Source: an uncultured Candidatus Saccharibacteria bacterium (lineage in GTDB: Bacteria > Patescibacteriota > Saccharimonadia > Saccharimonadales > UBA10212). From it: a stretch of DNA of 64,000 bases. The stretch lies in assembly GCA_964624785.1 (NCBI GenBank), contig CAZUXR010000002.1, positions 363 through 64,362 on the forward strand. The letters run 5' to 3'. Positions 3,175-61,256 of the stretch are shown here, piece by piece; the stretch's first letter is position 1; each line of letters opens with the position of its first letter. The position numbers and the translations under genes were made by a program. Under the pieces are notes generated by a model. It saw only the letters and a program-made list of their open reading frames with translations, ran no database searches and was not told the DNA's origin.

Positions 3175-4476
3175 ATGTTCACTAAAAAAACAATTCGCGA
3201 TATTGACCTTCAGGGCAAAACGGTGCTACTGCGCGCCGATTATAATGAGCCGGAAAAAAACGGTAAAATTAGCGACGATTACCGTATAAAAAAATCTTTA
3301 CCAACAGTTAAATACATCCTGGATCAGCCTGGGGCTAAACTTGTAATTATCTCTCATCTTGGGCGGCCAAAAGACGCTAACGACAAAGAATTTAGCTTAA
3401 AGTCCGTGGCTGTACGGTTAGGTGAATTGCTGGATAAAAAAGTACAGTTTGCACCTGATTGTATTGGCGAGCAAGCCAAAAAAGCGGCCACTGAACTCGG
3501 AGCAGGCGGCGTGCTACTACTAGAAAATGTACGGTTCCACCCGCAGGAGGAAGCTAACGACAAAGACTTTGCCCAAGCTATCGTGGATGCCACAGGGGCT
3601 GATGTATTCGTGCAAGACGGATTTGGTGTAGTGCACCGCAAACATGCTACCACCGACGCTATTGCCCACTTATTACCTTCGGTCGCAGGCTTGCTTGTAG
3701 AAAAAGAAGTAGACGTTATTACTGATGTTATGAGTAATCCAACGCGCCCGTGGGTAACAGTTGTTGGTGGTGCAAAAATTAGTGACAAAGTTGATTTTTT
3801 GAACCAGTTGATTGATAAAGCCGACTGCGTTGCAGTGGTTGGGGCGATCGCCAATAATTTTTTGCTGGCCGAAGGGTTTAAAATGGGCAGCAGCATGGTG
3901 GAACCCGAAGCAATGGATATTACTCTAGAAGTTTTGGAACGGGCGCGGATAGCCGAACGTGAGCGTAACTTTCATTTTATGATTCCCGTCGACGTAGTAG
4001 TCTCTAAGCGCAAAGACGGACTTGGCCCAACGCGCATTGTAGACTTAGCAAGCCACTCAATCGATGACATAGAAGCCTACCCTAAAAAGCCAGAACATGC
4101 TGCATATACAATCGCATCAGATGAGATGATGCTGGATATTGGTCCGGTTAGCGCAGCATATGTGGCGGGCGCAATAAAAATGTCTAACACGGTGGTTTGG
4201 AATGGAACAGCGGGCATAACAGAAGTTGCTGGAATCGGCGGGGCGGCTGCTCCGTATACCCACGGAACTCAAATTATAGTTAGTGCCATGATGGGCGCGA
4301 GTAATCGGCACAAAAACAAATCATTTACACTTGTTGGCGGCGGCGACACAGCCGCGTATGTAGAAGGCGAAGGATTGGTTGACGACTTTAGTCACGTTTC
4401 TACAGGAGGTGGGGCTAGTTTGGATCTAATGGCCGGACGCCCCTTGCCTGGTGTAGATGTGTTGCAGGATAAATAG
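3175..4476 (+). CDS. pgk: Phosphoglycerate kinase
   Basis: RADYNEP, ISHLGRP and GGGDTAA motifs. The full-length two-domain PGK is present. Confidence 0.95.
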   Translation: MFTKKTIRDIDLQGKTVLLRADYNEPEKNGKISDDYRIKKSLPTVKYILDQPGAKLVIISHLGRPKDANDKEFSLKSVAVRLGELLDKKVQFAPDCIGEQAKKAATELGAGGVLLLENVRFHPQEEANDKDFAQAIVDATGADVFVQDGFGVVHRKHATTDAIAHLLPSVAGLLVEKEVDVITDVMSNPTRPWVTVVGGAKISDKVDFLNQLIDKADCVAVVGAIANNFLLAEGFKMGSSMVEPEAMDITLEVLERARIAERERNFHFMIPVDVVVSKRKDGLGPTRIVDLASHSIDDIEAYPKKPEHAAYTIASDEMMLDIGPVSAAYVAGAIKMSNTVVWNGTAGITEVAGIGGAAAPYTHGTQIIVSAMMGASNRHKNKSFTLVGGGDTAAYVEGEGLVDDFSHVSTGGGASLDLMAGRPLPGVDVLQDK

Positions 4477-5327: not shown

Positions 5328-6737
5328 ATGCCAAGAGACGACGACATAAAAGTATTCGATGTGAGCAAACCTCATAAAAGCGAGCCAAGTGCCAGCAGCC
5401 GGCCGGTAATCGTAGGTCACCACCCAACCATGGCCGACCCAATGGTTAGAGAGGCTTTTAAGAGTCACCACGGCGATGGGCCAAAAATAGAAGTTAAAGG
5501 TGATGAGGATAACGAGGAAAAAATCGAAACTCATCACACTTTTGGCAAATTCCCGCTCGGCCTAGAAGAAAGCGCCTTTGGCGAGCACAGTAACTTTGGC
5601 AATAAAGAGCATTCGGATCATGAAGATCACGATGACCATATGTCTGAGCACAAAACCTTCGGTGATCATAGTGACCACAAAGAACCAGAGCCACCGTACA
5701 AAATAGAGATGCCTGGCAGTGACGATGATGGTTTGTATAACAATAAGCCTGCTGGACACAATACTCCATTGTTTGCCGATAAATCAGAAGACGAGCCAGA
5801 ATCCCCCAAGCCAAGTCACACTTTTAACACTCCTAAAATGTCCGACTCTGACCATTCCCTGTTTGGTGGGCACAAATCAGATAGCGATATGGGTTCCAAT
5901 ACTCACCACCCTACCGTAAGAGCCGAAGATTGGGTAGAGCCTTCGCCGTTGCATATACCGCATGGTGCCGGGCCATATCGCCGTTGGCCAAAAGTAATAA
6001 GTTGGGTTTTGATACTTTTACTTCTCGTGGTAATCGGTGGCTATCTGGCAATCGATGCTGGAATTGTAAAATCCAACATGAAGCTACCCTTCCATATTTT
6101 TAACAAGCAAAAAACTTCCACTGTTGCCGAACCTGCGCCAGCTCCAGCGCCGGTAGCTAAAGCTGCTACTCCCGCAGCTTCCGCCCTACCTCAAGGATTT
6201 ACTAAATACTCTGTGCCAGACACGACTTTGTCGTTTGCCTACCCAACCGCTTGGGGGGCACCGACTACAACGGCAGATCCTGGGTTTAGCCAGCGCAGCA
6301 CCAAAGGCAAATCAGACGGCACTTATGCCTATGTCATAAATTTTGCTACCAGCAAAGACGTTCAAATTGCCATTAGCTCATCCAAATACCTATTCACGCA
6401 TCCCGACGCTCATTACTACGATTATCTAAAATGGTGTGTTGGTACAAACGACGGTAAATTCTACAAAGAAAGCTTGCACTTTAATACGACCGCCGGCGTA
6501 GACACTCCAAGTACAGTAGCTTGCGACAAAGGTCCGCTAGACACCGCTGTCAAAGTAGACGCCACTACAATCATGCAGCCTAAATACAAAGAATCCGCCA
6601 AAGACATAACAGGCGATCTTTACACCAAAAACCTAAAAGCCAGCGATTTAACCGTGCTGCGTGTCATGGACCTGGCAATGACCAACGGTGCCCAGGTTAA
6701 ACAGCTTCTTGGCACGGTCAAAGAAACCGCTCAATAA
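5328..6737 (+). CDS. Hypothetical membrane protein with His/Asp-rich FG-repeat N-terminal region
   Basis: ATG 5328 is preceded by AAAGGAGAAG and follows the tpiA stop; the track ORF start at 5298 overlaps tpiA. The N-terminal ~220 aa is acidic and His-rich with repeated xFGxHSDH units, followed by one TM (VISWVLILLLLVVIGGYLAI) and a ~240-aa extracellular domain. Confidence 0.6.
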   Translation: MPRDDDIKVFDVSKPHKSEPSASSRPVIVGHHPTMADPMVREAFKSHHGDGPKIEVKGDEDNEEKIETHHTFGKFPLGLEESAFGEHSNFGNKEHSDHEDHDDHMSEHKTFGDHSDHKEPEPPYKIEMPGSDDDGLYNNKPAGHNTPLFADKSEDEPESPKPSHTFNTPKMSDSDHSLFGGHKSDSDMGSNTHHPTVRAEDWVEPSPLHIPHGAGPYRRWPKVISWVLILLLLVVIGGYLAIDAGIVKSNMKLPFHIFNKQKTSTVAEPAPAPAPVAKAATPAASALPQGFTKYSVPDTTLSFAYPTAWGAPTTTADPGFSQRSTKGKSDGTYAYVINFATSKDVQIAISSSKYLFTHPDAHYYDYLKWCVGTNDGKFYKESLHFNTTAGVDTPSTVACDKGPLDTAVKVDATTIMQPKYKESAKDITGDLYTKNLKASDLTVLRVMDLAMTNGAQVKQLLGTVKETAQ

Positions 6738-6789: not shown

Positions 6790-8952
6790 ATGATGGATTT
6801 AGAGGGTGCAAACCAATATACAGCGTTATTTGAAGGGTTAAATCCCGAACAAAAACGCGCTGTGCAGACAACGGAAGGACCGCTATTGATATTGGCGGGC
6901 GCTGGTAGCGGCAAAACCAAAACTCTAACTCACCGCATCGCTTATTTGCTGGCTACAAAAAAAGCTACGCCTTACAATATTTTGGCCGTAACTTTTACCA
7001 ACAAAGCTGCTGGAGAAATGCGCGAACGCGTTGCTAAACTAACCGGCCATAGCGCCGCCAGCCGTGGATTTATGCCGTTTATGGGCACCTTTCACTCCAT
7101 TTGCGTGCGACTGCTTAGGCAAGATGGCCAAGCGGTGGGGATTCCGCACAACTTTGTGATTTGGGATGAGGGCGACCGGACCGCCGCCGTAAGACAGGCC
7201 AGCAAAAAAGCCGGGATCAACGAAAAGACTTTCCCGCCGCGCATGATCGGGAGTTTAATTAGCAGTGCAAAAAACGCTATGGTTAGTCCTAGTGAGTATG
7301 CTTCCACGGCAAACAGCCCAGCTGCTAACGCTGTTGCCAAGGTTTACCCAATCTACGAAGCCAGTTTGCGCGAATGTTCGGCGCTGGATTTTGACGACCT
7401 AATTAGCCGTATGGTTGATCTACTAAAGGGCCAAAAAGAAATCAGACAGAAATGGCAGGACCAATTTAAGTATGTAATGATTGATGAATACCAAGACACT
7501 AACGCCGCGCAGTACGCTCTGGTCAAATTACTTACCAACAACCAGCGCAATATCGCCGTAGTAGGCGACGATTGGCAGAGCATTTACAGCTGGCGCGGAG
7601 CGGATTTTCGCAATATCTTGAACTTTGAGAAAGATTATCCGGATTGCCAAACTATTAAACTAGAACAAAATTATCGCAGCACAAAAAATATTCTTCGTGC
7701 TGCGCATAACGTTATAACTCGCAACGAAAAACGCAGTGACAAAAAATTATGGACGGCCAGCGCGGATGGTTCGCTCGTGCAAGTTGTGTCCGCTGCCAGC
7801 GAACGATCAGAGGCCGAGACAATCGCCCGGCACCTGCAAAGCCATGTCGACATCGGCGCCCGCGCCTACAAAGATTTTGCGATTTTGTACCGCACTAACG
7901 CCCAAAGCCGTGCAATCGAAGAGGTTCTAATTAACTACGCTATTCCGTACCGTATTGTCGGCGGAGTGCGCTTTTACGATCGCAAAGAAGTCAAGGATTT
8001 GGTGGCGTACTTGCGTTTAATTTACCAGCCAGAAGATTACGCCAGTTTTGAGCGAATTGTTAATGTACCAACTCGCGGGGTGGGGACGCGCTCGGTTCAA
8101 GTTTTTAATTCGTGGCGCGAAGCTAACGGATATAGTTTGAACGAAGCGCTGGGCAAAGTCGGCGCTTGCGGCGACATAACTCCCAAAGCTCGCACGGGAC
8201 TGGCCCAAATTGCCGATATTGTAAATACTTTCCATGAACAGATGGAAGACCTAACTCCCGCGGCACTGATCGACACATTAATTCGCCGCCTGGACTATCA
8301 AAAGTATCTGCAAGACGGATCGGTCCAGGGCGAAGCCCGCGTAGAAAACGTCCGCGAACTTTTGAGTGTTGCCGGGCAATATCAGGATTTAGGCCTATCT
8401 GGATTCTTAGAAGAAGTTTCGTTAATTAGCGACTTAGACAAAGCAGATCTAAATGCCAATTCTGTAACCTTAATGACATTGCATGCCGCCAAAGGCCTAG
8501 AATTCCCCGTCGTATTCATTACTGGGCTGGAAGAGACGGTATTCCCACACAGCCGCGCCCTGTACGACGCCGCAGAGATGGAAGAAGAGCGCCGTTTAAT
8601 GTATGTTGGCATGACTCGTGCCCGGGAAGAGCTATATTTACTGCACGCCGTACAACGAATGCTCTATGGCGGCCGCTTGGCCAATCCGCCCAGCCGTTTT
8701 TTGGCCGACATCGGGCCAGAAGCCAGTATGGCGGGATCACCAGCTTACGGTTTGTCGTCGGCTACCACGCCCAAATTCGCTAGCAATGAGCCACGCTACA
8801 TCCCGGAACTAGCCGAAGGTGACGGAGTAAAACACAATATTTTTGGTATAGGTACAATATTGGAACTAAGCGGAGATATCGCCACAATTTATTTTAAGGG
8901 CAAAGGAACTAAAAAGTTGGATATAGGCTTCGCCCCCTTAGAAAAACTATAA
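6790..8952 (+). CDS. pcrA: ATP-dependent DNA helicase, UvrD/PcrA family
   Basis: Walker A GAGSGKTKTLTHR, the DEYQDTN motif, and a UvrD C-terminal region (VGMTRAREELYL). Confidence 0.9.
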   Translation: MMDLEGANQYTALFEGLNPEQKRAVQTTEGPLLILAGAGSGKTKTLTHRIAYLLATKKATPYNILAVTFTNKAAGEMRERVAKLTGHSAASRGFMPFMGTFHSICVRLLRQDGQAVGIPHNFVIWDEGDRTAAVRQASKKAGINEKTFPPRMIGSLISSAKNAMVSPSEYASTANSPAANAVAKVYPIYEASLRECSALDFDDLISRMVDLLKGQKEIRQKWQDQFKYVMIDEYQDTNAAQYALVKLLTNNQRNIAVVGDDWQSIYSWRGADFRNILNFEKDYPDCQTIKLEQNYRSTKNILRAAHNVITRNEKRSDKKLWTASADGSLVQVVSAASERSEAETIARHLQSHVDIGARAYKDFAILYRTNAQSRAIEEVLINYAIPYRIVGGVRFYDRKEVKDLVAYLRLIYQPEDYASFERIVNVPTRGVGTRSVQVFNSWREANGYSLNEALGKVGACGDITPKARTGLAQIADIVNTFHEQMEDLTPAALIDTLIRRLDYQKYLQDGSVQGEARVENVRELLSVAGQYQDLGLSGFLEEVSLISDLDKADLNANSVTLMTLHAAKGLEFPVVFITGLEETVFPHSRALYDAAEMEEERRLMYVGMTRAREELYLLHAVQRMLYGGRLANPPSRFLADIGPEASMAGSPAYGLSSATTPKFASNEPRYIPELAEGDGVKHNIFGIGTILELSGDIATIYFKGKGTKKLDIGFAPLEKL

Positions 8953-10999: not shown

Positions 11000-11440
11000 A
11001 TGGAAATAAGTGCAAGTGCCGGGGGTATAATTGTTAGCCCAAAAGGACTGATTGCCGTTACTAATCAAGACGGAGTAAGTTGGTCGCTGCCAAAAGGTCG
11101 CTTAGAGGTTGGTGAAGATGAGCTAACCGCAGCTAAACGCGAAATTCTGGAAGAAACAGGGATTGAGCAGGTAATTCTTATAAAAAAGCTTGGCACCTAC
11201 GAACGTTATAAAATCGGCAAGGGCGGCAAAGGTGAAAACAAAACTATTAAAAAAATAATTACGCTATTTCTTTTTACGACTGACCAGGAAAAATTAGAAC
11301 CCCAAGATCCAGACAACCCCGAAGCCCGGTGGGTGAGTCCGGATAAAGTAACAGAATTTTTAACGCACCAAGCAGACAAAGATTTTTATAACAGCAAATT
11401 ACCAGAAGTTGCCAGATTAATCAAAGCACGTAGGCTGTGA
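11000..11440 (+). CDS. NUDIX hydrolase
   Basis: Nudix box GRLEVGEDELTAAKREILEETGI. Confidence 0.85.
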   Translation: MEISASAGGIIVSPKGLIAVTNQDGVSWSLPKGRLEVGEDELTAAKREILEETGIEQVILIKKLGTYERYKIGKGGKGENKTIKKIITLFLFTTDQEKLEPQDPDNPEARWVSPDKVTEFLTHQADKDFYNSKLPEVARLIKARRL

Positions 11441-11441
11441 T

Positions 11442-11462
11442 GTGCGAGGCCAGGCCTCACAC
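11442..11462. repeat. REP-like palindromic repeat GTGCGAGGCCAGGCCTCACAC (copy 1, intergenic)
   Basis: The same ~21-bp palindrome (core GTGAGGCC/GGCCTCAC) recurs at 50020, 50068 and 52518. Confidence 0.7.
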
Positions 11463-11564: not shown

Positions 11565-11971
11565 GGGGCTGAATTTTAAGCTCGACGTTGGACTTTAACA
11601 ACTTTGCATGGCAGGCCGGGTTGATCTGCACGTTAGCCGGATCAAAAAGATAGTTGCAAAAACTCTATCTCAGCGTGTAAACGCTGCTGCTGCGAACTTG
11701 TTTGCGGCATGTAGCTTTGCACCAACAGCGGCTTAAGTTATATAGGTTGCCGCTGCTCGATCGACACCAGATGAGTCGAAGTAGCGCCATATTATCTGGT
11801 TGCAGGTCTAGGAGTTTATCCGCTCTTGGGCTCTAAGATTTTAGGGTTGCGGAAATCACGCTTTTTGTTTGTTTAACAGCATGGTTACCAAAGATTTTTA
11901 AACAGACTAAGCCTGTAGTCATTAAGGAAGTTAACCGACGGACGCGGGGGAAGTATCCGCCAGCTCCACCA
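11565..11971 (+). ncRNA. ssrA: tmRNA (transfer-messenger RNA)
   Basis: The 5' end GGGGCUGAAUUUUAAGCUCGACG and 3' end GGACGCGGG...CCGCCAGCUCCACCA closely match the E. coli tmRNA acceptor and T-arm, including the G3:U pair. An internal tag frame starts at GCA 11656 (preceded by AAAAAGAUAGUU, as in E. coli AAAAAAUAGUC-GCA) and ends ...FAPTAA at TAA 11734-11736. The T-loop (GGAAGUA) is non-canonical. Confidence 0.8.
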
Positions 11972-26101: not shown

Positions 26102-26692
26102 ATGAAGATGGATCAGAGGGCCAAGGATAATACGGCAGCAGTTATAGATGGGATTTTAAAGTTTGTGGCTGTTGGTGGTTTTGTAACCACAGCCTTGGTG
26201 TTGCAAAATTCCGCTCAGATGTTCGATAAGCCGCTGGACAAAATGCTAAAGATTATGGATAAACGTCAGCAGGAGCGAGAGTTACGCCGGATTATTTATT
26301 ACATGAAGCAAAAAGGCCTTGTAAGATATCAAGCGGGTGATTACGAACACGGCATACAGCTTACCCAAAATGGCAAGCAGCGCTTAAAAAAAGCAAACTT
26401 CGTTGATTTACAAATCCCCAAGCCGTCAAAATGGGATGGCCAGTGGCGACTGGTGTTTTTTGATATACCCGAGACATCAAAGAAAAAGCGCGATTACCTG
26501 ACTTTCAAACTAAAAGAGTTAGGGTTTAAGATGTTGCAGCAAAGTATATGGGTGCATCCTTTTTCTTGTCGCCCCGAGATAGAAATGGTTGGCGAATTTC
26601 TGGGCGTTCGCCGCTATATCAGTTATGTCGAAATAAACCAAATAGACTCCGAGCACATTCTGCGAGAAAGATTTAAAAACCTAATAAACTAA
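26102..26692 (+). CDS. PaaX-family-like transcriptional regulator (wHTH plus PaaX C-terminal-like domain)
   Basis: KWDGQWRLVFFDIPE...KRDYLTFKLKELGFKMLQQSIWVHP parallels the PaaX motif WDGKW..L...K.L...GFG.L..S. Leaderless, with TATAAT 6 nt before the ATG. Confidence 0.55.
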   Translation: MKMDQRAKDNTAAVIDGILKFVAVGGFVTTALVLQNSAQMFDKPLDKMLKIMDKRQQERELRRIIYYMKQKGLVRYQAGDYEHGIQLTQNGKQRLKKANFVDLQIPKPSKWDGQWRLVFFDIPETSKKKRDYLTFKLKELGFKMLQQSIWVHPFSCRPEIEMVGEFLGVRRYISYVEINQIDSEHILRERFKNLIN

Positions 26693-30301: not shown

Positions 30302-31321
30302 ATGAGTTTAAAGTTAACATTGCCAATTGTCTTATTTGTAGCTTGGTTATGTTTGAGCGCGCAATCTGTAGTTAGTGCGGTGTATTTGCCGCAGCGTAGT
30401 TTGGATATTAGGAGTTCTACGGCCAGTGTTACTACCCAGCATACTGTAAGCTTTACTTTTCCGGGCAGTGCCAGCGTGGGGTCAATTAAGTTCGAATATT
30501 GCGACAGCCCACTAGAGGTGCTGTCCTGTGTTGCTCCGCCGGGCGTGGACGCTGCCGCAGCCGTATTGACTGCCCAGTCTGGCGAAACGGGCTTTAGTGT
30601 ATTATCTCAAACATCAAACGAAGTCGTGCTAACCCGCGTGCCAGCTGCCACGGGGTCTCAACTTAATTCTTACACCTTAAACGGCGTAAAAAACCCCAGC
30701 AATATAGGATCGTTTTATTTGCGCATAAGTTCTTATGCCAGCATCAACGCCACCGGACCCAGCATAGACTTTGGCGGTACCGTTGGCGCTATAACCCAGG
30801 GCATTAGCATTAATACAGAGGTCCCGCCTATTCTGGAATTTTGCGCAGCCGTGAGCATAACCTCTACTTGCGCGTCGGCCAGCGGCAATTTTGTAAATTT
30901 GGGCACGTTTAGTTCTAATTCTACGGCTACTGGCACAACTCAATTTTTAGTTGGCACGAACGCCAACTTTGGTTACGTGGTAACGCTTAATGGTAACACT
31001 TTAACTTCTGGTAACGATGTTATTGCGGCACTTAGCACGTCTGGCTCAAGCCAAAAAGGTCAATCGCAATTTGGTATGAATTTGCGGGCAAATTCTAATC
31101 CGCCGGTGGGTTCTGACCCGGCTGGCGGCAGCGGCAGCCCCACCGCAAATTACGGTACGCCGAACATCTTTAGATTTAATAACGGAGAAATCGTGGCTAG
31201 CAATTCTACCGTGTCGGATATTCAAATATATACGGCAAGCTATATTGTGAATATAGGCGGCGGCCAAGCGCCCGGAGTATATAACACTACACTAACCTAT
31301 GTAGCAACAGCCACTTTTTAG
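30302..31321 (+). CDS. Secreted Ser/Thr/Gly-rich beta-rich protein (paralog family A-3)
   Basis: A signal peptide, shared internal motifs (QFG.NL.AN, NTT.TY.AT.TF), and a C-terminal ...TTLTYVATATF. Confidence 0.55.
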   Translation: MSLKLTLPIVLFVAWLCLSAQSVVSAVYLPQRSLDIRSSTASVTTQHTVSFTFPGSASVGSIKFEYCDSPLEVLSCVAPPGVDAAAAVLTAQSGETGFSVLSQTSNEVVLTRVPAATGSQLNSYTLNGVKNPSNIGSFYLRISSYASINATGPSIDFGGTVGAITQGISINTEVPPILEFCAAVSITSTCASASGNFVNLGTFSSNSTATGTTQFLVGTNANFGYVVTLNGNTLTSGNDVIAALSTSGSSQKGQSQFGMNLRANSNPPVGSDPAGGSGSPTANYGTPNIFRFNNGEIVASNSTVSDIQIYTASYIVNIGGGQAPGVYNTTLTYVATATF

Positions 31322-31323
31322 AC

Positions 31324-31445
31324 AGAAACTACGCATTTGGCACATTTTGGCCCAAAAACTGCGCTCCGCGCTCACCGTACTATTTAGTACGATTCGCTTA
31401 CGGTGCTCTTTTTTGAACCAAACTGCACTCAAATGCGTAGTTTCT
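31324..31445. repeat. MITE-like element, short copy (16-bp perfect TIRs AGAAACTACGCATTTG)
   Basis: The termini are inverted repeats. Its internal sequence is shared with the 59053-59337 copy (GGCACATTTTG..AAAACTGCG..CGTACTATTTAGTACG..TTTTGAACCAAACTGCACTCAA). Confidence 0.65.
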
Positions 31446-36600: not shown

Positions 36601-36693
36601 GCTATTTTTGGCGATTATATATTTAACACACCTAAGCAGATAAAAATAATAATAGCACTTGACACACCCATTCTTGTTTGATACACTGTATAT

Positions 36694-37581
36694 ATGCAAG
36701 AGATGACAAACCTAATCGAGTTTTATAACCGCTTTAATGATGAGCAAACTTGTAGAGATTACCTCGAGAAGGCACGTTGGGGTGACAAGATAACTTGCCC
36801 TCACTGTGGAATTATCGGGAATGCCTATAAATATAAGGACGGACGGCTGTTTAAGTGTAAGGACTGCCGAAAGCAGTTTACTGTTCGTGTTGGCACTATC
36901 TTTGAGGACAGCAAACTACCCCTGCAAAAGTGGTTTCTAGCTATTTACTTGGCTACCAGTTTGAAAAAAGGCATTAGCTCAATTCAGCTTAGTAAATACT
37001 TAGGCATCACTCAAAAAACCGCGTGGTTTATGCTTCACCGTATTCGCCACGCTGTTGAAACCAACAATTACGATAAGCCGTTAGATGGTGATGTTGAAAT
37101 GGACGAAACGTATATTGGCGGTAAGACCACCGTGAAGAAAAAGTTTGATAACAAAACGCCTGTAGTCGGCGCAGTTGAGCGTAAAGGACGTGTGGTCGCA
37201 AAAGTTACTGATGACGCGTCATCAACTACCTTACAGAGCGTAATACGCGAGCGTGTTCCGGCAGATGCAAACCTGTACACAGACGACTGGAAAGGCTATC
37301 ACAGGGCAAGTCGCTTAGTGTTCATGCACCGTGCGGTCAATCACTCTAAGAAACAGTGGGCTGTTGGACAGGCGCACACCAATACAATTGAGGGCTTTTG
37401 GGCACATCTTAAGAGAGGTATAGACGGTATTTACCACCACGTTAGCCCCAAGCATCTGCAACGCTATTGCGATGAGTATCAGTATCGCTACAATACTAGA
37501 GAGATGAGTGACGGTGAACGCTTTAACGACTATTTCGCGAGCATACACACTAGACTAGAATATAAGGAGCTATTAGCATGA
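36694..37581 (+). CDS. IS1595-family DDE transposase
   Basis: N-terminal Zn-ribbon (CPHCG...CKDCRK), DDE region (MDETYIGG, YTDDWKGY), and a C-terminal HTNTIEGFW..LKRG..G.YHHVS.KHLQRY..E...RYN motif. Confidence 0.9.
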   Translation: MQEMTNLIEFYNRFNDEQTCRDYLEKARWGDKITCPHCGIIGNAYKYKDGRLFKCKDCRKQFTVRVGTIFEDSKLPLQKWFLAIYLATSLKKGISSIQLSKYLGITQKTAWFMLHRIRHAVETNNYDKPLDGDVEMDETYIGGKTTVKKKFDNKTPVVGAVERKGRVVAKVTDDASSTTLQSVIRERVPADANLYTDDWKGYHRASRLVFMHRAVNHSKKQWAVGQAHTNTIEGFWAHLKRGIDGIYHHVSPKHLQRYCDEYQYRYNTREMSDGERFNDYFASIHTRLEYKELLA

Positions 37582-38558
37582 AAAAAGAAGTTAGAAATAC
37601 TAGTAACCAGAGCGTGGGCAAGAAAATTCCGCGAGCGACTTTTAGCGGAACTTTGGAAATTGGCGACACCAACTCGTTACCTTGTTATGTACTTGAAGAT
37701 GGCCGCCGGATTTTTAGTACCAAGGGTATGATAGAAAGCCTCGGATATAAAGGAAACGCGAACGCGAACGAGATTTTCAGCAATAGAACCTTAGTACCGT
37801 ACCTCATGGCGCACGGCGACCCTTATCATTCTGGCAACTTGGTTGACTTTATTACTGACAGAGGAACTCCGGCCAAAGGTATTGATGTAGAGAAGTTCAT
37901 GGATGTTTGCCATGCTTACTCCGAGGCTTTGGACAGTGGAACACTGAAAGGCAGGAACGCGGACGCGGCCTTGCAAGCCAACGCCATTATCCGTGCTTCA
38001 TCTAAACTAGGTATTGTCGCTCTCGTTGATGAGGTTACAGGCTACCAGTATGTTCGAGCCGAGGACGCACTGCAATTCAAGCTAAAACTGTTTTTGGCAG
38101 AAGAAATGCGCGGTTGGGAAAAGACATTCCCCGATGAACTATGGATAGAGTTTGCACGCTTAACCCAATGGGAAGGACAACCAACTAAAAACCGCCCACG
38201 CTACTGGGGTTATTTAGTTATGGACTTGATATACCGTTATTTAGACCCCGAAGTCGCGAGCTATATAAAAGAGAATAAACCCAAGCCACGCAAGGGTCAG
38301 AATTATCACCAATGGTTTAACGATGACTACGGCATGAAACGACTGATTGAACATATCAACCGTGTCATCGGTATGGCTCAAGGCTGTGACACAATGGACG
38401 AGCTGAAAAAGAAAATGCACCACCGCTATGGTGGTCAACCGATACAGCTTGAAATGTTTATAGATGACCACGATAAGCGTGAGATACCCACTAAGATTGA
38501 TATGCCCTTTGATGAAGCTCTAGCAAAAATTGCCAAAGCCGACCCACCGAAGAAATAG
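37578..38558 (+). CDS. IS passenger protein of unknown function (possibly phage-related; P63C-like resemblance is unverified)
   Basis: Its ATG overlaps the transposase stop (ATGA). 326 aa with motifs VDEVTGYQYVR and W.KTFPDELW.EF.RL..W...RPRYWGY. No transposition motifs. Confidence 0.45.
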   Translation: MKKEVRNTSNQSVGKKIPRATFSGTLEIGDTNSLPCYVLEDGRRIFSTKGMIESLGYKGNANANEIFSNRTLVPYLMAHGDPYHSGNLVDFITDRGTPAKGIDVEKFMDVCHAYSEALDSGTLKGRNADAALQANAIIRASSKLGIVALVDEVTGYQYVRAEDALQFKLKLFLAEEMRGWEKTFPDELWIEFARLTQWEGQPTKNRPRYWGYLVMDLIYRYLDPEVASYIKENKPKPRKGQNYHQWFNDDYGMKRLIEHINRVIGMAQGCDTMDELKKKMHHRYGGQPIQLEMFIDDHDKREIPTKIDMPFDEALAKIAKADPPKK

Positions 38559-38795
38559 TTACCGCTTTATGCCGAGAATTGCGCCGAGTACAAACGAGCC
38601 GATGAGTAGAAGTATAGCGTGTGAGAGTTTATAGCTAAAGAACGCCCAGACAACACCACCAAGCCATACAATGCCACCTAATGAGCTGAGATATAGATTT
38701 AACTTGGGTTTACGGTGAGCGTCAGGCTGTAGCTTGTCAGAGAAGGCTACCAGTACAACCCCGATGATAATCAATGCGATTGGCATAACTGACAT
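38559..38795 (-). CDS. Small two-TM membrane protein encoded inside the IS (antisense orientation)
   Basis: 78 aa, hydrophobic (MSVMPIALIIIGVVLVAF...ILLLIGSFVLGAILGIKR). Lies wholly within the TIRs. Confidence 0.35.
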   Translation of the reverse strand: MSVMPIALIIIGVVLVAFSDKLQPDAHRKPKLNLYLSSLGGIVWLGGVVWAFFSYKLSHAILLLIGSFVLGAILGIKR

Positions 38796-38878
38796 TATAC
38801 ATTAGGTGTGTTAAATATATAATCGCCCTATTTTTCATAATCCCGACAGAGAGCAAATGTGCTATAATCAATCTGATT

Positions 38879-46416: not shown

Positions 46417-46968
46417 TTAACTCAAGTCGGGGAAGTGTTTAATTAGTCTGCGAGTAGAAAGCTCGTCAAAACTGCTGATCTCTACAAGAGAACAGTGCCT
46501 CAGCACATTATAATGTCCGGCAAGCTTTTCTATTTGCTTAAAACATGGGTAGGGGTGGACCCAAACACTTTTTTGCAGCATTACAAAACCCAATGACTTT
46601 AATTTGGCTGCGAGTATTACTCGGCTGCGTGATTGGCTAACGGGCACATCAAACATCACCGCTCTCCATGTCCCATCCCATTTTGCAAGCTTTGGAATTT
46701 CTATTTCGTCAATTGCGACTTGCTGTAAACGGTAGGCGCCAGCAGGAGTTAAGCCAAATGTTATCTTATCCCCGTTCTTAGAAATATGCACAAGATCCTG
46801 GCGCCGTAGCTCGGCCAGGATACGATGATTCTGGGGACCCTTGTTGCCCAGAAGGCTATTTAATCCTGCCGCGGTACTAGTAGCCCTAGCACTAACACCA
46901 GAAAATCCAGCCATACCGATAACTTTTAGTGCAGAATTAATTTCTTGAGTCATTCTAGCCATATACAT
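46417..46968 (-). CDS. PaaX-family-like transcriptional regulator (paralog of 26102..26692)
   Basis: KWDGTWRAVMFDVP...RVILAAKLKSLGFVMLQKSVWVHP, with an N-terminal wHTH. Confidence 0.55.
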   Translation of the reverse strand: MYMARMTQEINSALKVIGMAGFSGVSARATSTAAGLNSLLGNKGPQNHRILAELRRQDLVHISKNGDKITFGLTPAGAYRLQQVAIDEIEIPKLAKWDGTWRAVMFDVPVSQSRSRVILAAKLKSLGFVMLQKSVWVHPYPCFKQIEKLAGHYNVLRHCSLVEISSFDELSTRRLIKHFPDLS

Positions 46969-49593: not shown

Positions 49594-52473
49594 TTGACAG
49601 ATTTTATTTCTATAAAAGGGGCGCGGGAACACAATTTAAAAGACATTAGTCTTGATATTCCGCGTGGTCAATTGGTGGTTATAACTGGGCTTTCGGGATC
49701 CGGCAAGTCCAGCCTTGCTTTTGATACCATCTACGCCGAAGGCCAGCGGCGATATGTAGAAAGCCTGAGCGCGTACGCCCGGCAATTTTTGGGTTTGATG
49801 GAAAAGCCCGATGTCGACCAGATTGACGGTTTAAGCCCGGCGATTAGCATTGATCAGAAATCGACCAGTCGTAATCCACGCAGCACAGTCGCGACCGTCA
49901 CAGAAATTTATGATTATTTGCGTTTGCTTTTTGCTCGTGTTGGCACGCCGCACTGCCCAGTCTGCGACAAAGCTGTCACCCGCCAAACAACCGCGAATGT
50001 TATCGACCAAGTTGCGAATGTGCGAGGCCAGGCCTCACACCGTGGAGTGTCACCTCAAGAAAATGCGTTAGGCCAGGCCTCACACAAGGATTCCGAAGGG
50101 AGCAGATTAATCATTCTGGCCCCAGTTATTTTGGATAAAAAAGGCGCATTTGAACATATTCCGGAACAGTTCATGCGCGCTGGTTTTGCGCGCGCAAGAG
50201 TAGACGGAATAATCTACGCGCTAGACGAATTCCCAGAACTAGATAAAAACTATAAGCACAAAATAGAAATAGTAGTTGATCGGCTGGTAAATTCCACAGA
50301 AAACCGTGGCCGCTTGGCGCAGAGTGTCGAGCAAGCTTTTGATCTAGCCAATGGTTTGATGATCGTAAACGATGCCGATTCAAATAAAGACACCCTTTAT
50401 TCACTTAAATACGCGTGTGTTGATCATCCGGACGTGGCAATTCCAGAACTAGAGCCGCGTACATTTAGCTTTAACAGCCCCCATGGTGCCTGCCCAGTAT
50501 GTACTGGCCTGGGTAACCGGTTAGAAGTTGACCCCGAACTGGTCATACCAAATGGCCGGCTAACTTTGGCAGAGGGCGCAATCCGCCCATATAACCGTGT
50601 TAACACAGACGCTTGGTATATGAAGAAGCTGCAGGCCGTGGGTGATCGTTATGACTTTAGCTTGCATGTGCCAACTGCCGAACTAAGTGACAGTCAGCAA
50701 AATAAGATTCTTTATGGAACTGGTGACGAAAAGTACAAGATTAGGCTGGGTCATGGGCGGACTTTCGAGACAACCTACGAAGGTGTAATCCCAAACCTAG
50801 AACGCCGTCACAAAGAAACAGACAGTGATTTTATGCGCCGTGACATAGAACGATTTATGCAAGAGCGCCCGTGCCACACCTGCAAAGGCCGCCGCTTAAA
50901 GCCAGAGGTTTTGGCGGTTACAGTAGATGGGCAGAGTATTATGGATATTTGCGAACTCAACATCGATGAATCTATAGAATTCTTTAAAACTATCAAACTG
51001 GATACAACCGGTGTGAGCATTGCCAAGCAAATACTAAAGGAGATTAACGCTCGGCTGGAATTTTTGCGCGATGTCGGGCTAAACTATCTGAATCTTGCTC
51101 GGAGTGCGGTGAGTTTAAGCGGTGGCGAAGCGCAGCGGATTCGCCTGGCGACACAGATCGGTAGCGGCTTGCAAGGGGTTTTATATGTATTGGATGAACC
51201 TAGCATTGGCTTGCATCAGCGTGATAACGAGCGGCTGTTAAAAACACTGGAGCGCCTGCGAGATTTAGGCAATAGTGTGATTGTAGTGGAGCACGACGAG
51301 GAGACAATTCGGGCTGCTGATTTTTTAGTAGACATTGGTCCGGGAGCAGGAATACACGGCGGCAGAGTGGTGGCAAGCGGCACGCCGGCAGAGGTCGCTA
51401 AATCCAAAATAAGCATCACGGCACAATTTCTGCGCGGCGATAAAATTATAAGTACTCCAAAAAAACGCCGCCCGGGCAACGGAAATAAGCTATCGATTAT
51501 AGGTGCAGCCGAACACAATCTAAAAAATGTAGATGTGGATATTCCACTCGGCCAGCTGGTTGTAGTGAGTGGCGTCAGCGGATCCGGTAAGTCTAGCTTA
51601 ATTAACGATATTCTGGCACGCGAACTCAGCGCCAGACTCATGCGAGCCAATGCAAATCCCGGCCGCCACAAAGAGGTTCAAGGGATCAAAAATCTAGATA
51701 AGGCAATCGTGATAGATCAATCGCCGATCGGGCGTACACCGCGGTCCAATCCGGCAACTTACACAGGTTTATTTACGCCAATCCGCGATCTATTTTCGCA
51801 GATGCCAGAAGCTAAACTGCGTGGATACAACCCTGGCCGCTTTAGTTTTAACGTTAAAGGTGGGCGCTGCGAAAATTGCGCGGGCGACGGTGTTATAAAA
51901 ATAGAAATGCACTTTTTACCTGATGTTTACGTGCCGTGCGAAGTCTGCCACGGCAAACGCTACAACCGCGAAGCACTGGAGATTCACTACAAAGGCAAGA
52001 CAATCAGCGATGTGCTGGATCTGACCTGCGAACAAGCTCTAGATTTTTTTGAAAATATTCCGGCAATTGCTCGCAAACTGCAAACTTTGGTAGATGTGGG
52101 TTTGGGCTACATTGCGCTCGGCCAACCTGCCACGACTTTATCGGGCGGGGAAGCTCAGCGTATAAAGCTGGCAAGCGAACTATCGCGTCGACCAACCGGA
52201 CGCACACTCTACATCTTGGATGAACCAACCACTGGGTTACATATGGCGGATGTAGCTAAGCTGCTTGATGTTTTGCATGCGCTAGTAGACACCGGCAACA
52301 GTATGGTGGTGATCGAGCATAACTTGGATGTTATAAAGTCCGCTGATCACATCATAGATATGGGTCCAGAGGGCGGTGAGGCAGGCGGTCGGGTTGTAGC
52401 TAGCGGCACGCCAGAACAGGTAGCCAAGATTTCTGCCAGCTACACCGGCCAATACCTATCCAAAGTTCTCTAA
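49594..52473 (+). CDS. uvrA: Excinuclease ABC subunit A, carrying a 23-aa in-frame insertion encoded by two REP-like repeats
   Basis: Two ABC ATPase modules ([18 protein letters not shown]), Zn fingers ([12 protein letters not shown]), and signature LSGGEAQR twice. The extra segment [23 protein letters not shown] corresponds to 50020-50088. Confidence 0.95.
50020..50088. repeat. Two REP-like palindromes (GTGCGAGGCCAGGCCTCACAC ...30 nt... GGCCAGGCCTCACACAAG) inside the uvrA coding frame
   Basis: The sequence matches the intergenic copies at 11442 and 52518. The insert is 69 nt, which is 23 codons, so it stays in frame. Confidence 0.75.
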
Positions 52474-52517
52474 ACTACTAACTATTTGCGCAAAACCCAC
52501 ATTACTTTGCACTTTAC

Positions 52518-52545
52518 GCGTGAGGCCAGGCCTCACGCAAGGATT
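52518..52545. repeat. REP-like palindromic repeat GCGTGAGGCCAGGCCTCACGCAAGGATT (copy 4, intergenic after uvrA)
   Basis: It shares GGCCAGGCCTCACRCAAGGATT with the 50068 copy. Confidence 0.7.
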
Positions 52546-58457: not shown

Positions 58458-58838
58458 ATGAAGAAAACGCAGCAACAAAGTTTTGCTACAAAATTTGCGG
58501 TTCGTTGGTTGGTATCTGGCTTAGGGCTTTGGATCGCGTCGGGTCTGCTTGGACCTGAGCGTTTGAGCGTGGGACATAACTGGGAAACGGTAGTTGCGGC
58601 CGGATTTTTCTTGGCATTGGTTAATATGTTTTTAAAGCCGATTTTACTGCTTCTTTCGATCCCGGCGATTTTACTGAGCCTGGGACTATTTGTATTAGTA
58701 GTTAATGGATTTTTAATAATGATTGCTAGCTGGCTGTATAATCCCTTCTACGTTAAAAACTTTGGCGTGGCAGTGATTGCGGGAATGATAGTTGGCTTGG
58801 TAAACTACTTAGTAACAAAGATATTGGAGGATCTATGA
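58458..58838 (+). CDS. Phage-holin-4_2 / DUF360 family membrane protein
   Basis: A 126-aa, four-TM protein with duplicated halves, each ending in an L.N.L motif. Confidence 0.55.
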   Translation: MKKTQQQSFATKFAVRWLVSGLGLWIASGLLGPERLSVGHNWETVVAAGFFLALVNMFLKPILLLLSIPAILLSLGLFVLVVNGFLIMIASWLYNPFYVKNFGVAVIAGMIVGLVNYLVTKILEDL

Positions 58839-59050
58839 CAATCTGGAACTATATAACAATTGTGAGCATGGCACTGCTGACTATTTTAATTTTGATTCAA
58901 ACTCGCGGGGCGAGCCTGGGCGCGGGGCTTGGCGGCGGCGGAGAAGTTCATACGGAGCGCCGCGGATCAGATAAAAGCATACATCAGCTAACTATAATTT
59001 TAGTTTTCATTTTTTGTGCAAGTATAATCATCAACATCGTAGCCAAATAG
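58835..59050 (+). CDS. secG: Preprotein translocase subunit SecG
   Basis: 71 aa. TM1-LLTILILIQTRGASLGAGLGGGGEV-...-TM2 is the SecG hallmark (Q..GKGxGLGxxFGGG). Confidence 0.7.
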   Translation: MTIWNYITIVSMALLTILILIQTRGASLGAGLGGGGEVHTERRGSDKSIHQLTIILVFIFCASIIINIVAK

Positions 59051-59052
59051 AA

Positions 59053-59337
59053 GGAGCTGCGCACTTGGCACATTTTGTCCTAAAATCTGCGATCCGCATT
59101 CAACGTACTTATGAGTACGCCTCATTTGCGGTTCTCGATTTTATAGCAACCCCAAAACAAAACTCGCATTTTGAACCGCGCCTCGCCAGCCAAAAATCGT
59201 CATTCCTCGTTCAACGTATCTACAGATATGCCTCTCTTGGAAATAACGATTTTTGGCTCAGACGATCCATCATTTCAAATTTACAAGTTTTGTCTTGGGA
59301 TTGCTATAGAACAAACTGCACTCAAGTGCGCAGCTCC
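59053..59337. repeat. MITE-like element, long copy (15-bp perfect TIRs GGAGCTGCGCACTTG)
   Basis: The same family as 31324-31445, with ~140 extra internal bp and internal duplicated modules (CAACGTACTTATGAGTACGCCTCATTTGCGG / CAACGTATCTACAGATATGCCTCTCTTGG). Confidence 0.65.
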
Positions 59338-59362
59338 TTATCGCGAACTATGGTGGCTAAAA

Positions 59363-61169: not shown

Positions 61170-61256
61170 TGGTGGGGATGAGAGGACTTGAACCTCCACG
61201 AACAAATGTTCACTACGTCCTGAACGTAGCGCGTCTACCAATTCCGCCACATCCCC
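61170..61256 (-). tRNA. tRNA-Leu (anticodon CAG)
   Basis: Reverse complement: GGGGAUG-UG-GCGG-AAUUGGUAGA-CGCG-CUACG-UUCAGGA-CGUAG-UGAACAUUUGUUCGU-GGAGG-UUCAAGU-CCUCU-CAUCCCC-A-CCA. It has a class II long variable arm, is nearly identical in its arms to E. coli tRNA-Leu(CAG), and encodes its CCA. Confidence 0.9.

Follow-up and report, generated by a model that had tools for sequence, protein, structure and literature searches.

Two spacers in a 64,000-nt stretch of DNA from an uncultured Candidatus Saccharibacteria bacterium (hereafter, the window) contain a pair of look-alike palindromes, the ends of which differ between the copies and pair perfectly within each copy. What kind of element is this, and is the pairing of its ends kept for recognition of terminal inverted repeats (TIRs) by a transposase, or for an RNA hairpin? 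An earlier note, made from the sequence of the window, called the pair a MITE-like family and named both options. The look-alike pair is real and lies at the positions noted, sharing the motifs TTGGCACATTTTG and CAAACTGCACTCAA and an ungapped block of 98 nt; for the second copy, the location stands, with the limits better placed at 59051–59339 (17-bp perfect arms) than at 59053–59337. The features of the two loci are:

31319–31321, plus strand: TAG stop codon of the upstream open reading frame (ORF, 30302–31321), 2 nt before the stem base of copy 1
31324–31445, minus strand under structural selection: copy 1, a complete single-module element of 122 nt
31324–31339: left arm of the copy 1 outer stem, AGAAACTACGCATTTG, pairing with 31430–31445 over 16/16 bp
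31430–31445: right arm of the copy 1 outer stem, CAAATGCGTAGTTTCT
31337–31349: copy 1 motif TTGGCACATTTTG, the minus-strand reading of which, CAAAAUGUGCCAA, is the 3′ half of the conserved bulged helix
31419–31432: copy 1 motif CAAACTGCACTCAA, the minus-strand reading of which, UUGAGUGCAGUUUG, is the 5′ half of the conserved helix
31374–31393, minus strand: apical GUAC stem-loop of copy 1, within the conserved inner module
59048–59050, plus strand: TAG stop codon of secG (58835–59050), 0 nt before the stem base of copy 2
59051–59339, minus strand: copy 2, a composite of 289 nt with outer stem, conserved helix, inner module and a nested second hairpin
59051–59067: left arm of the copy 2 outer stem, beginning right after the SecG stop and pairing with 59323–59339 over 17/17 bp
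59323–59339: right arm of the copy 2 outer stem
59065–59077: copy 2 motif TTGGCACATTTTG
59312–59325: copy 2 motif CAAACTGCACTCAA
59078–59143, minus strand: standard inner module of copy 2, homologous to the copy 1 interior
59144–59306, minus strand: nested 163-nt hairpin in the copy 2 inner stem (internal inverted match 59139–59311)

Over their first 98 nt, the two copies align at 74% identity (BLASTN E = 2e-15). The terminal complementarity described earlier is indeed perfect, extending over 16 bp in copy 1 and 17 bp in copy 2, and because each of the 4 differences between the left arms has its complementary counterpart in the right arms, all four changes are compensated, just as the matching substitutions had been read. 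Both copies fold far better than dinucleotide shuffles (z between −6.8 and −14.4), and in both the minus strand is the better folder, with RNA minimum free energies of −66.5 versus −48.5 kcal/mol on the plus strand for copy 1 and −148.6 versus −110.9 kcal/mol for copy 2. The latter sequence is present in identical form in an independent SRA assembly. At both sites, the next gene lies on the same strand as the upstream gene.

The two window copies belong to a much larger family, with further members in metagenome and GTDB loci. A GTDB-wide 18-mer scan, in which the window's own genome is apparently not a species representative, returned 51 loci, two of them real (L015 and L049, from genomes labelled Candidatus Saccharimonadales and Saccharibacteria) and 49 chance matches. 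A metagenome scan requiring both motifs 52–82 nt apart yielded 63 loci, nearly all with the same architecture; since the pattern demanded both exact motifs, the invariance of the motifs in this set is partly built in. Three pattern matches (L068, L084 and L089) fold unlike the family and were set aside as atypical. A covariance model (R1) built from 56 aligned copies recovered 74 copies in the loci collected (~0.49 Mb) plus the window, some of which do not match the pattern used for the scan; as many as 4 copies lie within 13.7 kb. Pattern scans and model together added ~75 copies to the two of the window. Under R1, copy 1 scores 120.9 bits and copy 2 50.6 bits, and the apical module of the nested hairpin (~59191–59244), a diverged GUAC module, gives a partial match of 14.3 bits. 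After discounting the copy by which each locus had been selected, the density is ~1 copy per 27 kb of flanking sequence, or an estimated 30–40 copies per Mb; the window itself holds 2 copies in 64 kb, 28 kb apart, and neither BLASTN nor an unfiltered covariance-model scan detected a third. Against Rfam 15, the window produced no match at gathering score and six loci produced none at E ≤ 1; the lone match at E ≤ 10 was a spurious snoRNA hit. In viral contigs, the left-end pattern produced only chance matches and the two-motif pattern none, and a search of the literature on the motif and on repeats and structured RNAs of Saccharibacteria/Patescibacteria found nothing relevant. We are apparently dealing with an undescribed, large and uncatalogued family of small non-coding palindromic repeats.

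The element, mostly 122–135 nt long (~125 nt; nested composites reach about 290–400 nt), is a long bulged hairpin with four parts, which we describe on the best-folding strand (the minus strand of the window). The outer stem of ~16 bp (12–17 bp) has no conserved sequence and is paired. It is followed by an invariant helix, 5′-UUG-A-GUGCA-G-UUUG / CAAA-A-UGUGC-CAA-3′, with a bulged A, tandem U·G/G·U pairs and a G·A mismatch (in copy 1, within the 5′ half at 31419–31432), then by a variable inner stem of 8–13 bp, and finally by a conserved apical module composed of CCGY/GCGG, an AA bulge, 2 covarying pairs, a tandem G·A and the GUAC stem (7 bp, with a loop of 4–5 nt).

The earlier note had proposed that selection maintains the pairing of the termini and had suggested a covariance model as a check; across ~65 aligned copies, the covariation is strong. 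Pairing is retained in 93.8% of cells in the 65 model-aligned copies, compared to 75.5% in shuffles and 29–45% with slid partners, and 410 cells carry compensated changes where 124 are expected. Double-sided changes affect 20 of 32 pairs in the aligned family, the columns of the copy 1 outer stem covary family-wide, and helix 3, the apical stem, is 97.5% paired with all five of its five pairs covarying. The formal covariation test covers the outer stem, the conserved helix, the 2-bp helix and the apical stem; a single structure string for all inner stems was dropped because the subtypes are offset in the alignments. Copies found without the search pattern replace UUG/CAA by AUG/CAU, and a copy in locus L131 replaces GUGCA/UGUGC by GUGUA/UACAC. 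Since even the 'invariant' helix covaries in such pattern-free copies, it is a true helix. These observations show that the hairpin is under purifying selection, and its copies are defined by shape more than by sequence. Of the two options named at the outset, the hairpin fits the evidence better, whereas recognition of TIRs by a transposase finds no support: the outermost 12–17 bp are the least conserved part of the element, and the invariant motifs lie further inwards and do not form a perfect inverted repeat.

Three aspects absent from the earlier note are the asymmetry of the strands, the abutment to stop codons and the occurrence in two phyla. In all 63 copies tested, the better fold is on the strand antisense to the upstream gene (the complement of TTGGCAC...), with a mean folding energy of −57.0 kcal/mol versus −43.3 kcal/mol for the other strand. 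The structured strand contains threefold more G·U pairs (442 versus 148), an excess that outside the invariant helix is only ~2:1. It is also purine-rich (GC skew +0.20 and AT skew +0.09, compared to −0.05 and −0.02 in the flanks); among its unpaired bases, A accounts for 49%, G for 31%, U for 11% and C for 10%. The known deamination biases linked to replication and transcription would drive the composition in the reverse direction, so we read the asymmetry as selection on the structured strand. The few differences among paralogs of 88–94% identity again create G·U pairs on this strand. Taken together, these data show that the strand antisense to the upstream gene is the one under selection; as the asymmetry is kept under DNA energy parameters, it does not discriminate between RNA and single-stranded DNA.

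Of 51 cases, 43 have a locus GC skew with the sign of the weak strand and 38 a coding bias that agrees with this strand, which makes the structured strand usually the template of transcription and, by inference from skew, the leading-strand template. GC skew and coding bias are confounded with respect to whether replication or transcription causes this orientation bias. The orientation has exceptions; at 7877–7990 of L130, for example, the strong strand is in the mRNA.

The placement of the copies is equally constrained. An ORF stop lies at the stem base on the weak-fold strand in 44 of 74 copies, mostly 0–4 nt away, and in a stricter count restricted to metagenome and GTDB loci, with the window excluded, the weak orientation is in the mRNA 35 times versus 7 for the strong one. 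The distance from the end of the stop codon to TGGCAC is 12–22 nt (mode 13–17); all three stop codons are used (TAG 19, TAA 18, TGA 5), so the element is not the supplier of the stop. The upstream genes are mostly housekeeping genes, namely tuf (three loci), ftsA, rnj (RNase J), a gene for a G5-domain protein and cyoC (two loci each), as well as infB, gyrB, pyrG, secY, rpsM, rpsK, rpsE, rplY, atpE, atpH and secG, and the surface or transport genes that had been noted beside the window copies are incidental. Downstream, either the ribosome-binding site of the next gene follows within 0–30 nt or there is a sigma-70-like promoter. This shows that the copies are placed between the stop codon and the signals of the next gene.

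No T-run or U-tract was found on either side of the element, which rejects an intrinsic terminator in the sense direction, and an antisense terminator was likewise discarded, with no enrichment of A before the stop codon (0.315 versus 0.294). For the structured strand, no conserved −10/−35 promoter was detected in 60 aligned upstream flanks, and scans of the window remained at chance level. The left motif resembles a sigma-54 promoter (TGGCAC-N5-TTGC); its −12 GC is present in one subtype only, and inspection of the sequences led us to reject this candidate. Flanking target-site duplications, one of the marks that the earlier note proposed to look for, are absent from the ~60 copies inspected and from pairs of empty and filled sites, which instead reveal clean insertion after the stop codon.

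Such pairs document turnover. The junction between the G5-domain protein gene and rsmA is empty in the window (TAA ACTCT ATG) and filled in L064 and L087, and at the secG/SBP site the window and L129 carry the element, which is missing from L127 and L128 (spacers of 46 and 27 nt, respectively), in genomes of comparable distance. Locus L098 contains three copies and the syntenic L124, at 70–73% nucleotide identity, none. Within one sample, unrelated loci carry copies that are 88–94% identical. Since L082 and L090 have a common interior and two copies of L098 common termini, interiors and termini appear to have different histories, pointing to recombination between copies; nested and truncated copies occur as well, and so do bursts specific to single lineages. 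Viewed through such comparison rather than direct observation, the genomes show proliferation and turnover, with multiplication within lineages and gain or loss between relatives; no excision or insertion intermediates were seen in these loci.

The carriers seem to fall into two phyla. Judging by the names of protein clusters, on which the taxonomy of the loci rests, EF-Tu and AtpE of several loci belong to clusters named Saccharimonadales or Ca. Mycosynbacter amalyticus, while in L105 and L122 S11 is annotated as Oscillospiraceae and the nearest named homologues of SecY are from Clostridia. On this basis, the hosts include Saccharimonadales, of the Candidate Phyla Radiation (CPR), and at least one termite-gut lineage of Oscillospiraceae. 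Nothing else in the protein collection exceeds 69% identity to the UvrC protein of the window, the nearest named relatives of which are Saccharimonadales. In the clostridial contig L130, which comprises L105 and L122, the spc–alpha ribosomal-protein operon carries copies after L5, L14 (truncated), S5, L15 (in the opposite orientation), S13, S11 and RpoA. A second palindromic family, in which the GUAC module recurs, is present in the operon too, and several of these elements are nested composites of 250–400 nt. Its relative L131 (77% SecY identity) has spacers of 1–38 nt at most of those junctions and retains only the S13/S11 copy, with compensated changes.

A partner that could mobilize the family, another of the checks proposed in the earlier note, was not found in the window or the loci analysed. 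The 64-kb window encodes no RAYT, integrase or reverse transcriptase, no neighbouring gene recurs in 393 kb of loci, and all-against-all clustering of 975 mechanically called ORFs from 57 loci recovered only housekeeping genes. A phmmer search with approximate TnpA/RAYT query sequences detected one IS200 TnpA, in L097, in ~0.5 Mb of loci; its hairpins are unrelated to the family. The IS1595 element of the window (36610–38827), with 26-bp TIRs and a clean 8-bp duplication, likewise has ends unrelated to the family. It provides an example of a true TIR element in this genome.

How, then, does the family compare with known palindromic repeats? The ERIC/IRU elements of enterobacteria are imperfect palindromes of ~127 nt that lie between genes in transcribed regions; a genome holds a few dozen of them, some variants contain internal insertions, and their effects on mRNA depend on orientation. 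Our family is likewise an intergenic, multi-copy imperfect palindrome of similar length with internal-insertion variants. It differs in lacking any sequence similarity to ERIC (no Rfam match) and in being conserved mainly in structure, whereas ERIC copies are conserved in sequence; moreover, we know of no fixed distance to stop codons described for ERIC. The Correia elements (NEMIS) of Neisseria, with which it shares a size of ~100–150 nt, the potential to form hairpins and co-transcription with neighbours, are bounded by conserved TIRs of 26 bp and duplicate a TA target, and neither feature is present here. Rickettsia palindromic elements, also ~100–150 nt long, have in a comparable manner invaded reduced genomes of bacteria that depend on a host, with essential genes and operons among their targets; they insert in frame within coding sequences, in contrast to the position of our family just outside the stop codon. 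A separate small GC-rich palindrome of the window lies in frame in uvrA.

Integron attC sites are situated directly 3′ of an ORF and work as a folded bottom strand with extrahelical bases and variable length, and those of chromosomal integrons have a reported orientation relative to replication. All these traits recur in our family, including the better-folding bottom strand and the same orientation relative to replication. However, the R″/R′ core sites (RYYYAAC ... GTTRRRY) are missing from the window copies and the aligned family, there are no cassette arrays and, in the 64-kb window, no integrase, and the paired outer stem is an additional feature. The IS200/IS605-derived PATEs have left- and right-end hairpins in direct orientation and an active top strand on the lagging-strand template, unlike the single long palindrome described here, of which, in 43 of 51 cases, the structured strand complements the strand rich in G and in genes.

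The closest parallel is provided by REPINs, REP doublets that form hairpins and are mobilized by RAYT transposases (Bertels & Rainey 2011, PMC3116915). In REPINs, two invariant inverted motifs enclose a spacer of which only the length and the potential to form a hairpin are conserved, compensatory changes being common (PMC3116915). Our family also has two invariant inverted motifs (~70 nt apart) and a compensating spacer; both are extragenic, multi-copy, lineage-specific families that leave no target-site duplication, and both are proposed to act as folded single strands. Each end of a REPIN is a REP palindrome of 20–40 nt, with a GTAG or CGTC tag (PMC3733652 for the tag). By contrast, TTGGCACATTTTG and CAAACTGCACTCAA are not self-complementary, and our family has no fixed end tetranucleotide and no GTAG/CGTC tag. 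Beyond the motifs it carries an extra, variable, paired stem of 12–17 bp, and neither the window nor the loci analysed here yielded a RAYT. Further differences from REPINs are the abutment to stop codons, the marked asymmetry of the strands and the hosts (CPR bacteria and Clostridia).

We consider it probable, with some reserve, that the elements form a new REPIN/ERIC-like family of structure-defined repeats that act or spread as a folded single strand. As to the mechanism, we infer that it is in the form of a folded single strand, either single-stranded DNA or an RNA of the structured polarity, that the element would spread or act, and that a putative trans-acting protein would recognize the invariant bulged helix and the GUAC module. 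The surviving orientation would put the weaker hairpin, with its mismatches, into the mRNA and onto the template of the lagging strand, where it may be tolerated even inside ribosomal-protein operons. Several observations sit uneasily with this reading. Neither a mobilizing enzyme nor a target-site signature was found in the loci analysed. Purine-rich loops and G·U pairs classically mark an RNA that is transcribed and structured, and yet the structured strand has no conserved promoter in the flanks examined. Copies behind tuf, ftsA and rnj recur across species, and the structure is kept at old sites; this recurrence and the kept structure fit a function for the host at least as well as selfish spread.

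A role in the sense mRNA, to which the spacing from the stop codons and the repeated occurrence after highly expressed genes point, is a serious rival, even if we regard it as rather unlikely. The hairpin would then be a cis-acting element at the 3′ end of a cistron that protects against 3′ exonucleases, marks a processing site or brings stop and start into proximity for translational coupling, with pyrimidine-rich loops and A·C mismatches selected against sequences resembling Shine–Dalgarno or start signals and for keeping the stop reachable by ribosomes. In line with such a role, the tight distance holds for all three stop codon types, copies inside ribosomal-protein and ATP-synthase operons are necessarily co-transcribed, a ribosome-binding site or sigma-70-like promoter often comes next, and the sense strand, too, keeps a strong fold (mean −43 kcal/mol, z = −6.8). 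Nevertheless, G·U pairs, energy and loop composition all favour the other strand, there is no U-tract, close relatives do without the element at the same junctions and show no visible replacement, and identical motifs in two phyla are hard to square with vertical conservation of a regulatory site. Were the structured strand instead the source of an independent small RNA or a cis-antisense RNA, convergent with the upstream gene, its structured-RNA signature (covariation, G·U pairs and unpaired bases that are 49% A and 31% G) would be readily understood, as would the way in which the 3′ base of the hairpin adjoins, and rarely overlaps, the neighbouring coding sequence. But for a free-standing RNA gene, the lack of a conserved promoter or −10 box on that strand weighs heavily, as does that of a terminator tract; at tight operon junctions, a promoter would fall inside the next gene, and ~30–40 copies per Mb with variable interiors, some nested or in opposite orientation, are not what such a gene would predict. 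We therefore judge this explanation improbable.

The remaining alternatives invoke recombination enzymes. As a classical MITE, the family would be a deletion derivative of an insertion sequence, mobilized in trans by a DDE transposase via its TIRs, and the label 'MITE-like' stands in the loose sense that the copies are small, non-coding, multi-copy, palindromic and proliferating; an IS1595 transposase is even present in the window. In its strict, transposon-derived sense, however, the label fails and this origin is essentially excluded: the termini are the most variable part, with the outer 12–17 bp free to vary and covarying and the invariant motifs subterminal, the IS1595 copy differs in its TIRs and its 8-bp duplication from the duplication-free insertions of the family (~60 copies and the empty/filled pairs), and a strand-specific structural signature has no role in cut-and-paste of double-stranded DNA. 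Equally far-fetched is an attC-like scenario, in which a structure-specific recombinase would move the adjacent gene or element by means of folded bottom-strand sites. The position 3′ of an ORF, a folding strand that is the complement of the coding strand and lies on the template of the leading strand, and an imperfect palindrome whose length varies and in which extrahelical bases and only short boxes are conserved would all agree with it; but the RYYYAAC/GTTRRRY core sites are wanting, the paired variable stem outside the boxes would not be preserved by crossover inside them, the upstream genes are essential and syntenic rather than cassettes, and neither arrays nor, in the window, an integrase are seen. 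A bolder version of the preferred reading of a folded single strand, built on analogy, would make the elements bottom-strand substrates (single-stranded DNA hairpins or RNA scaffolds) of a putative structure-specific enzyme, inserted precisely at gene ends and carried between CPR bacteria and Firmicutes. We deem it doubtful; if true, it would constitute a new class of structure-guided mobile element, comparable to the attC/IntI or REPIN/RAYT systems and unlike them in its recognition logic.

The genomes of Saccharibacteria are tiny, densely packed and usually described as repeat-poor, which makes a dense structured repeat, present even in ribosomal-protein and ATP-synthase operons, unexpected. 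With dozens of divergent copies, strong covariation, a strand signature that points away from the mRNA and carriers in what seem to be two unrelated phyla, the family amounts to a clean natural experiment, and families of this kind can reveal a new RNA- or DNA-binding protein or mechanism of mobilization. Ca. Mycosynbacter amalyticus, a close relative of a carrier (its AtpE shares at least 90% identity with that of locus L070), has been cultured, which opens the question to experiment. The covariance model can already be used for annotation, where it avoids mis-calling these elements as small RNAs, terminators or MITEs, and the presence of the family affects how gene ends, operons and intergenic spacers are to be read in these genomes.

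The window carries a complete insertion sequence of the IS1595 family at 36610-38827, bounded by perfect terminal inverted repeats of 26 bp (GGCGATTATATATTTAACACACCTAA) and flanked by an 8-bp target duplication (CTATTTTT). We found the hairpin family, the structured repeats of about 125 bases that abut stop codons, to be unrelated to this element. At a locus outside the window (L097), a hairpin-family copy has an IS200-type element 450 nt away. This element carries GC-rich hairpins at its left end and its right end, and they likewise bear no relation to the family motifs. The coding and element coordinates are as follows.

Window 36694-37581, DDE transposase of the IS1595-family element
Window 37578-38558, passenger ORF with a P63C domain, within the same element
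L097 2250-2800, IS200-type element
L097 2340-2744, its Y1 TnpA

A small GC-rich palindrome, RTGYGWKAGGCCAGGCCTCACRC, constitutes a distinct second repeat in the window, with one copy directly behind the stop codon of a NUDIX gene and another behind uvrA. Within uvrA, two further copies lie in frame and are translated as two ..GQASH.. segments, a situation that we liken to the in-frame palindromic elements of Rickettsia. The palindrome copies are listed here with two routine Rfam matches.

Window 11440-11462, 50018-50040, 50063-50085 and 52516-52538, RTGYGWKAGGCCAGGCCTCACRC palindrome
Window 11565-11971, plus strand, tmRNA gene
Window 61173-61256, minus strand, tRNA gene

A pair of paralogous proteins, each bearing a PaaX central (Cas2-like) domain, is also encoded on opposite strands of the window (26102-26692 and 46417-46968).

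Palindromes of more than one kind also occur together in a ribosomal-protein operon that carries family copies.

L130 2395-15258, ribosomal-protein operon region of the termite-gut Oscillospiraceae contig Ga0131853_10000168

Here, spacers of 110-400 nt separate the genes at about 13 junctions, and the long spacers are occupied by nested palindromic elements of at least two families, the second of which has ends AAATTTGCGTSAAAT... and is present in both orientations; in a relative (L131), spacers measure 1-38 nt at most of these junctions within its coverage. Separately, four termite-gut loci (L066, L102, L105 and L122) show an unusually strong GC skew of 0.17-0.37 across 4-11 kb.

Tandem repeats adjoin or overlap several matches to the two-motif search pattern: a 117-nt unit repeated 2.3 times (L089 485-755), which includes both motifs yet has no hairpin fold; repeats near the element in L113, as (TTAGTTC)n, and in L119; and a 14-nt duplication (L129 11905-11960). 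Finally, two spacers of L098 (~3560-3585 and ~5520-5545), downstream of two neighbouring hairpin-family copies and before the next promoter, share the motif AGAAAAACTCTTWAAG, possibly a further repeat or a site of regulation.
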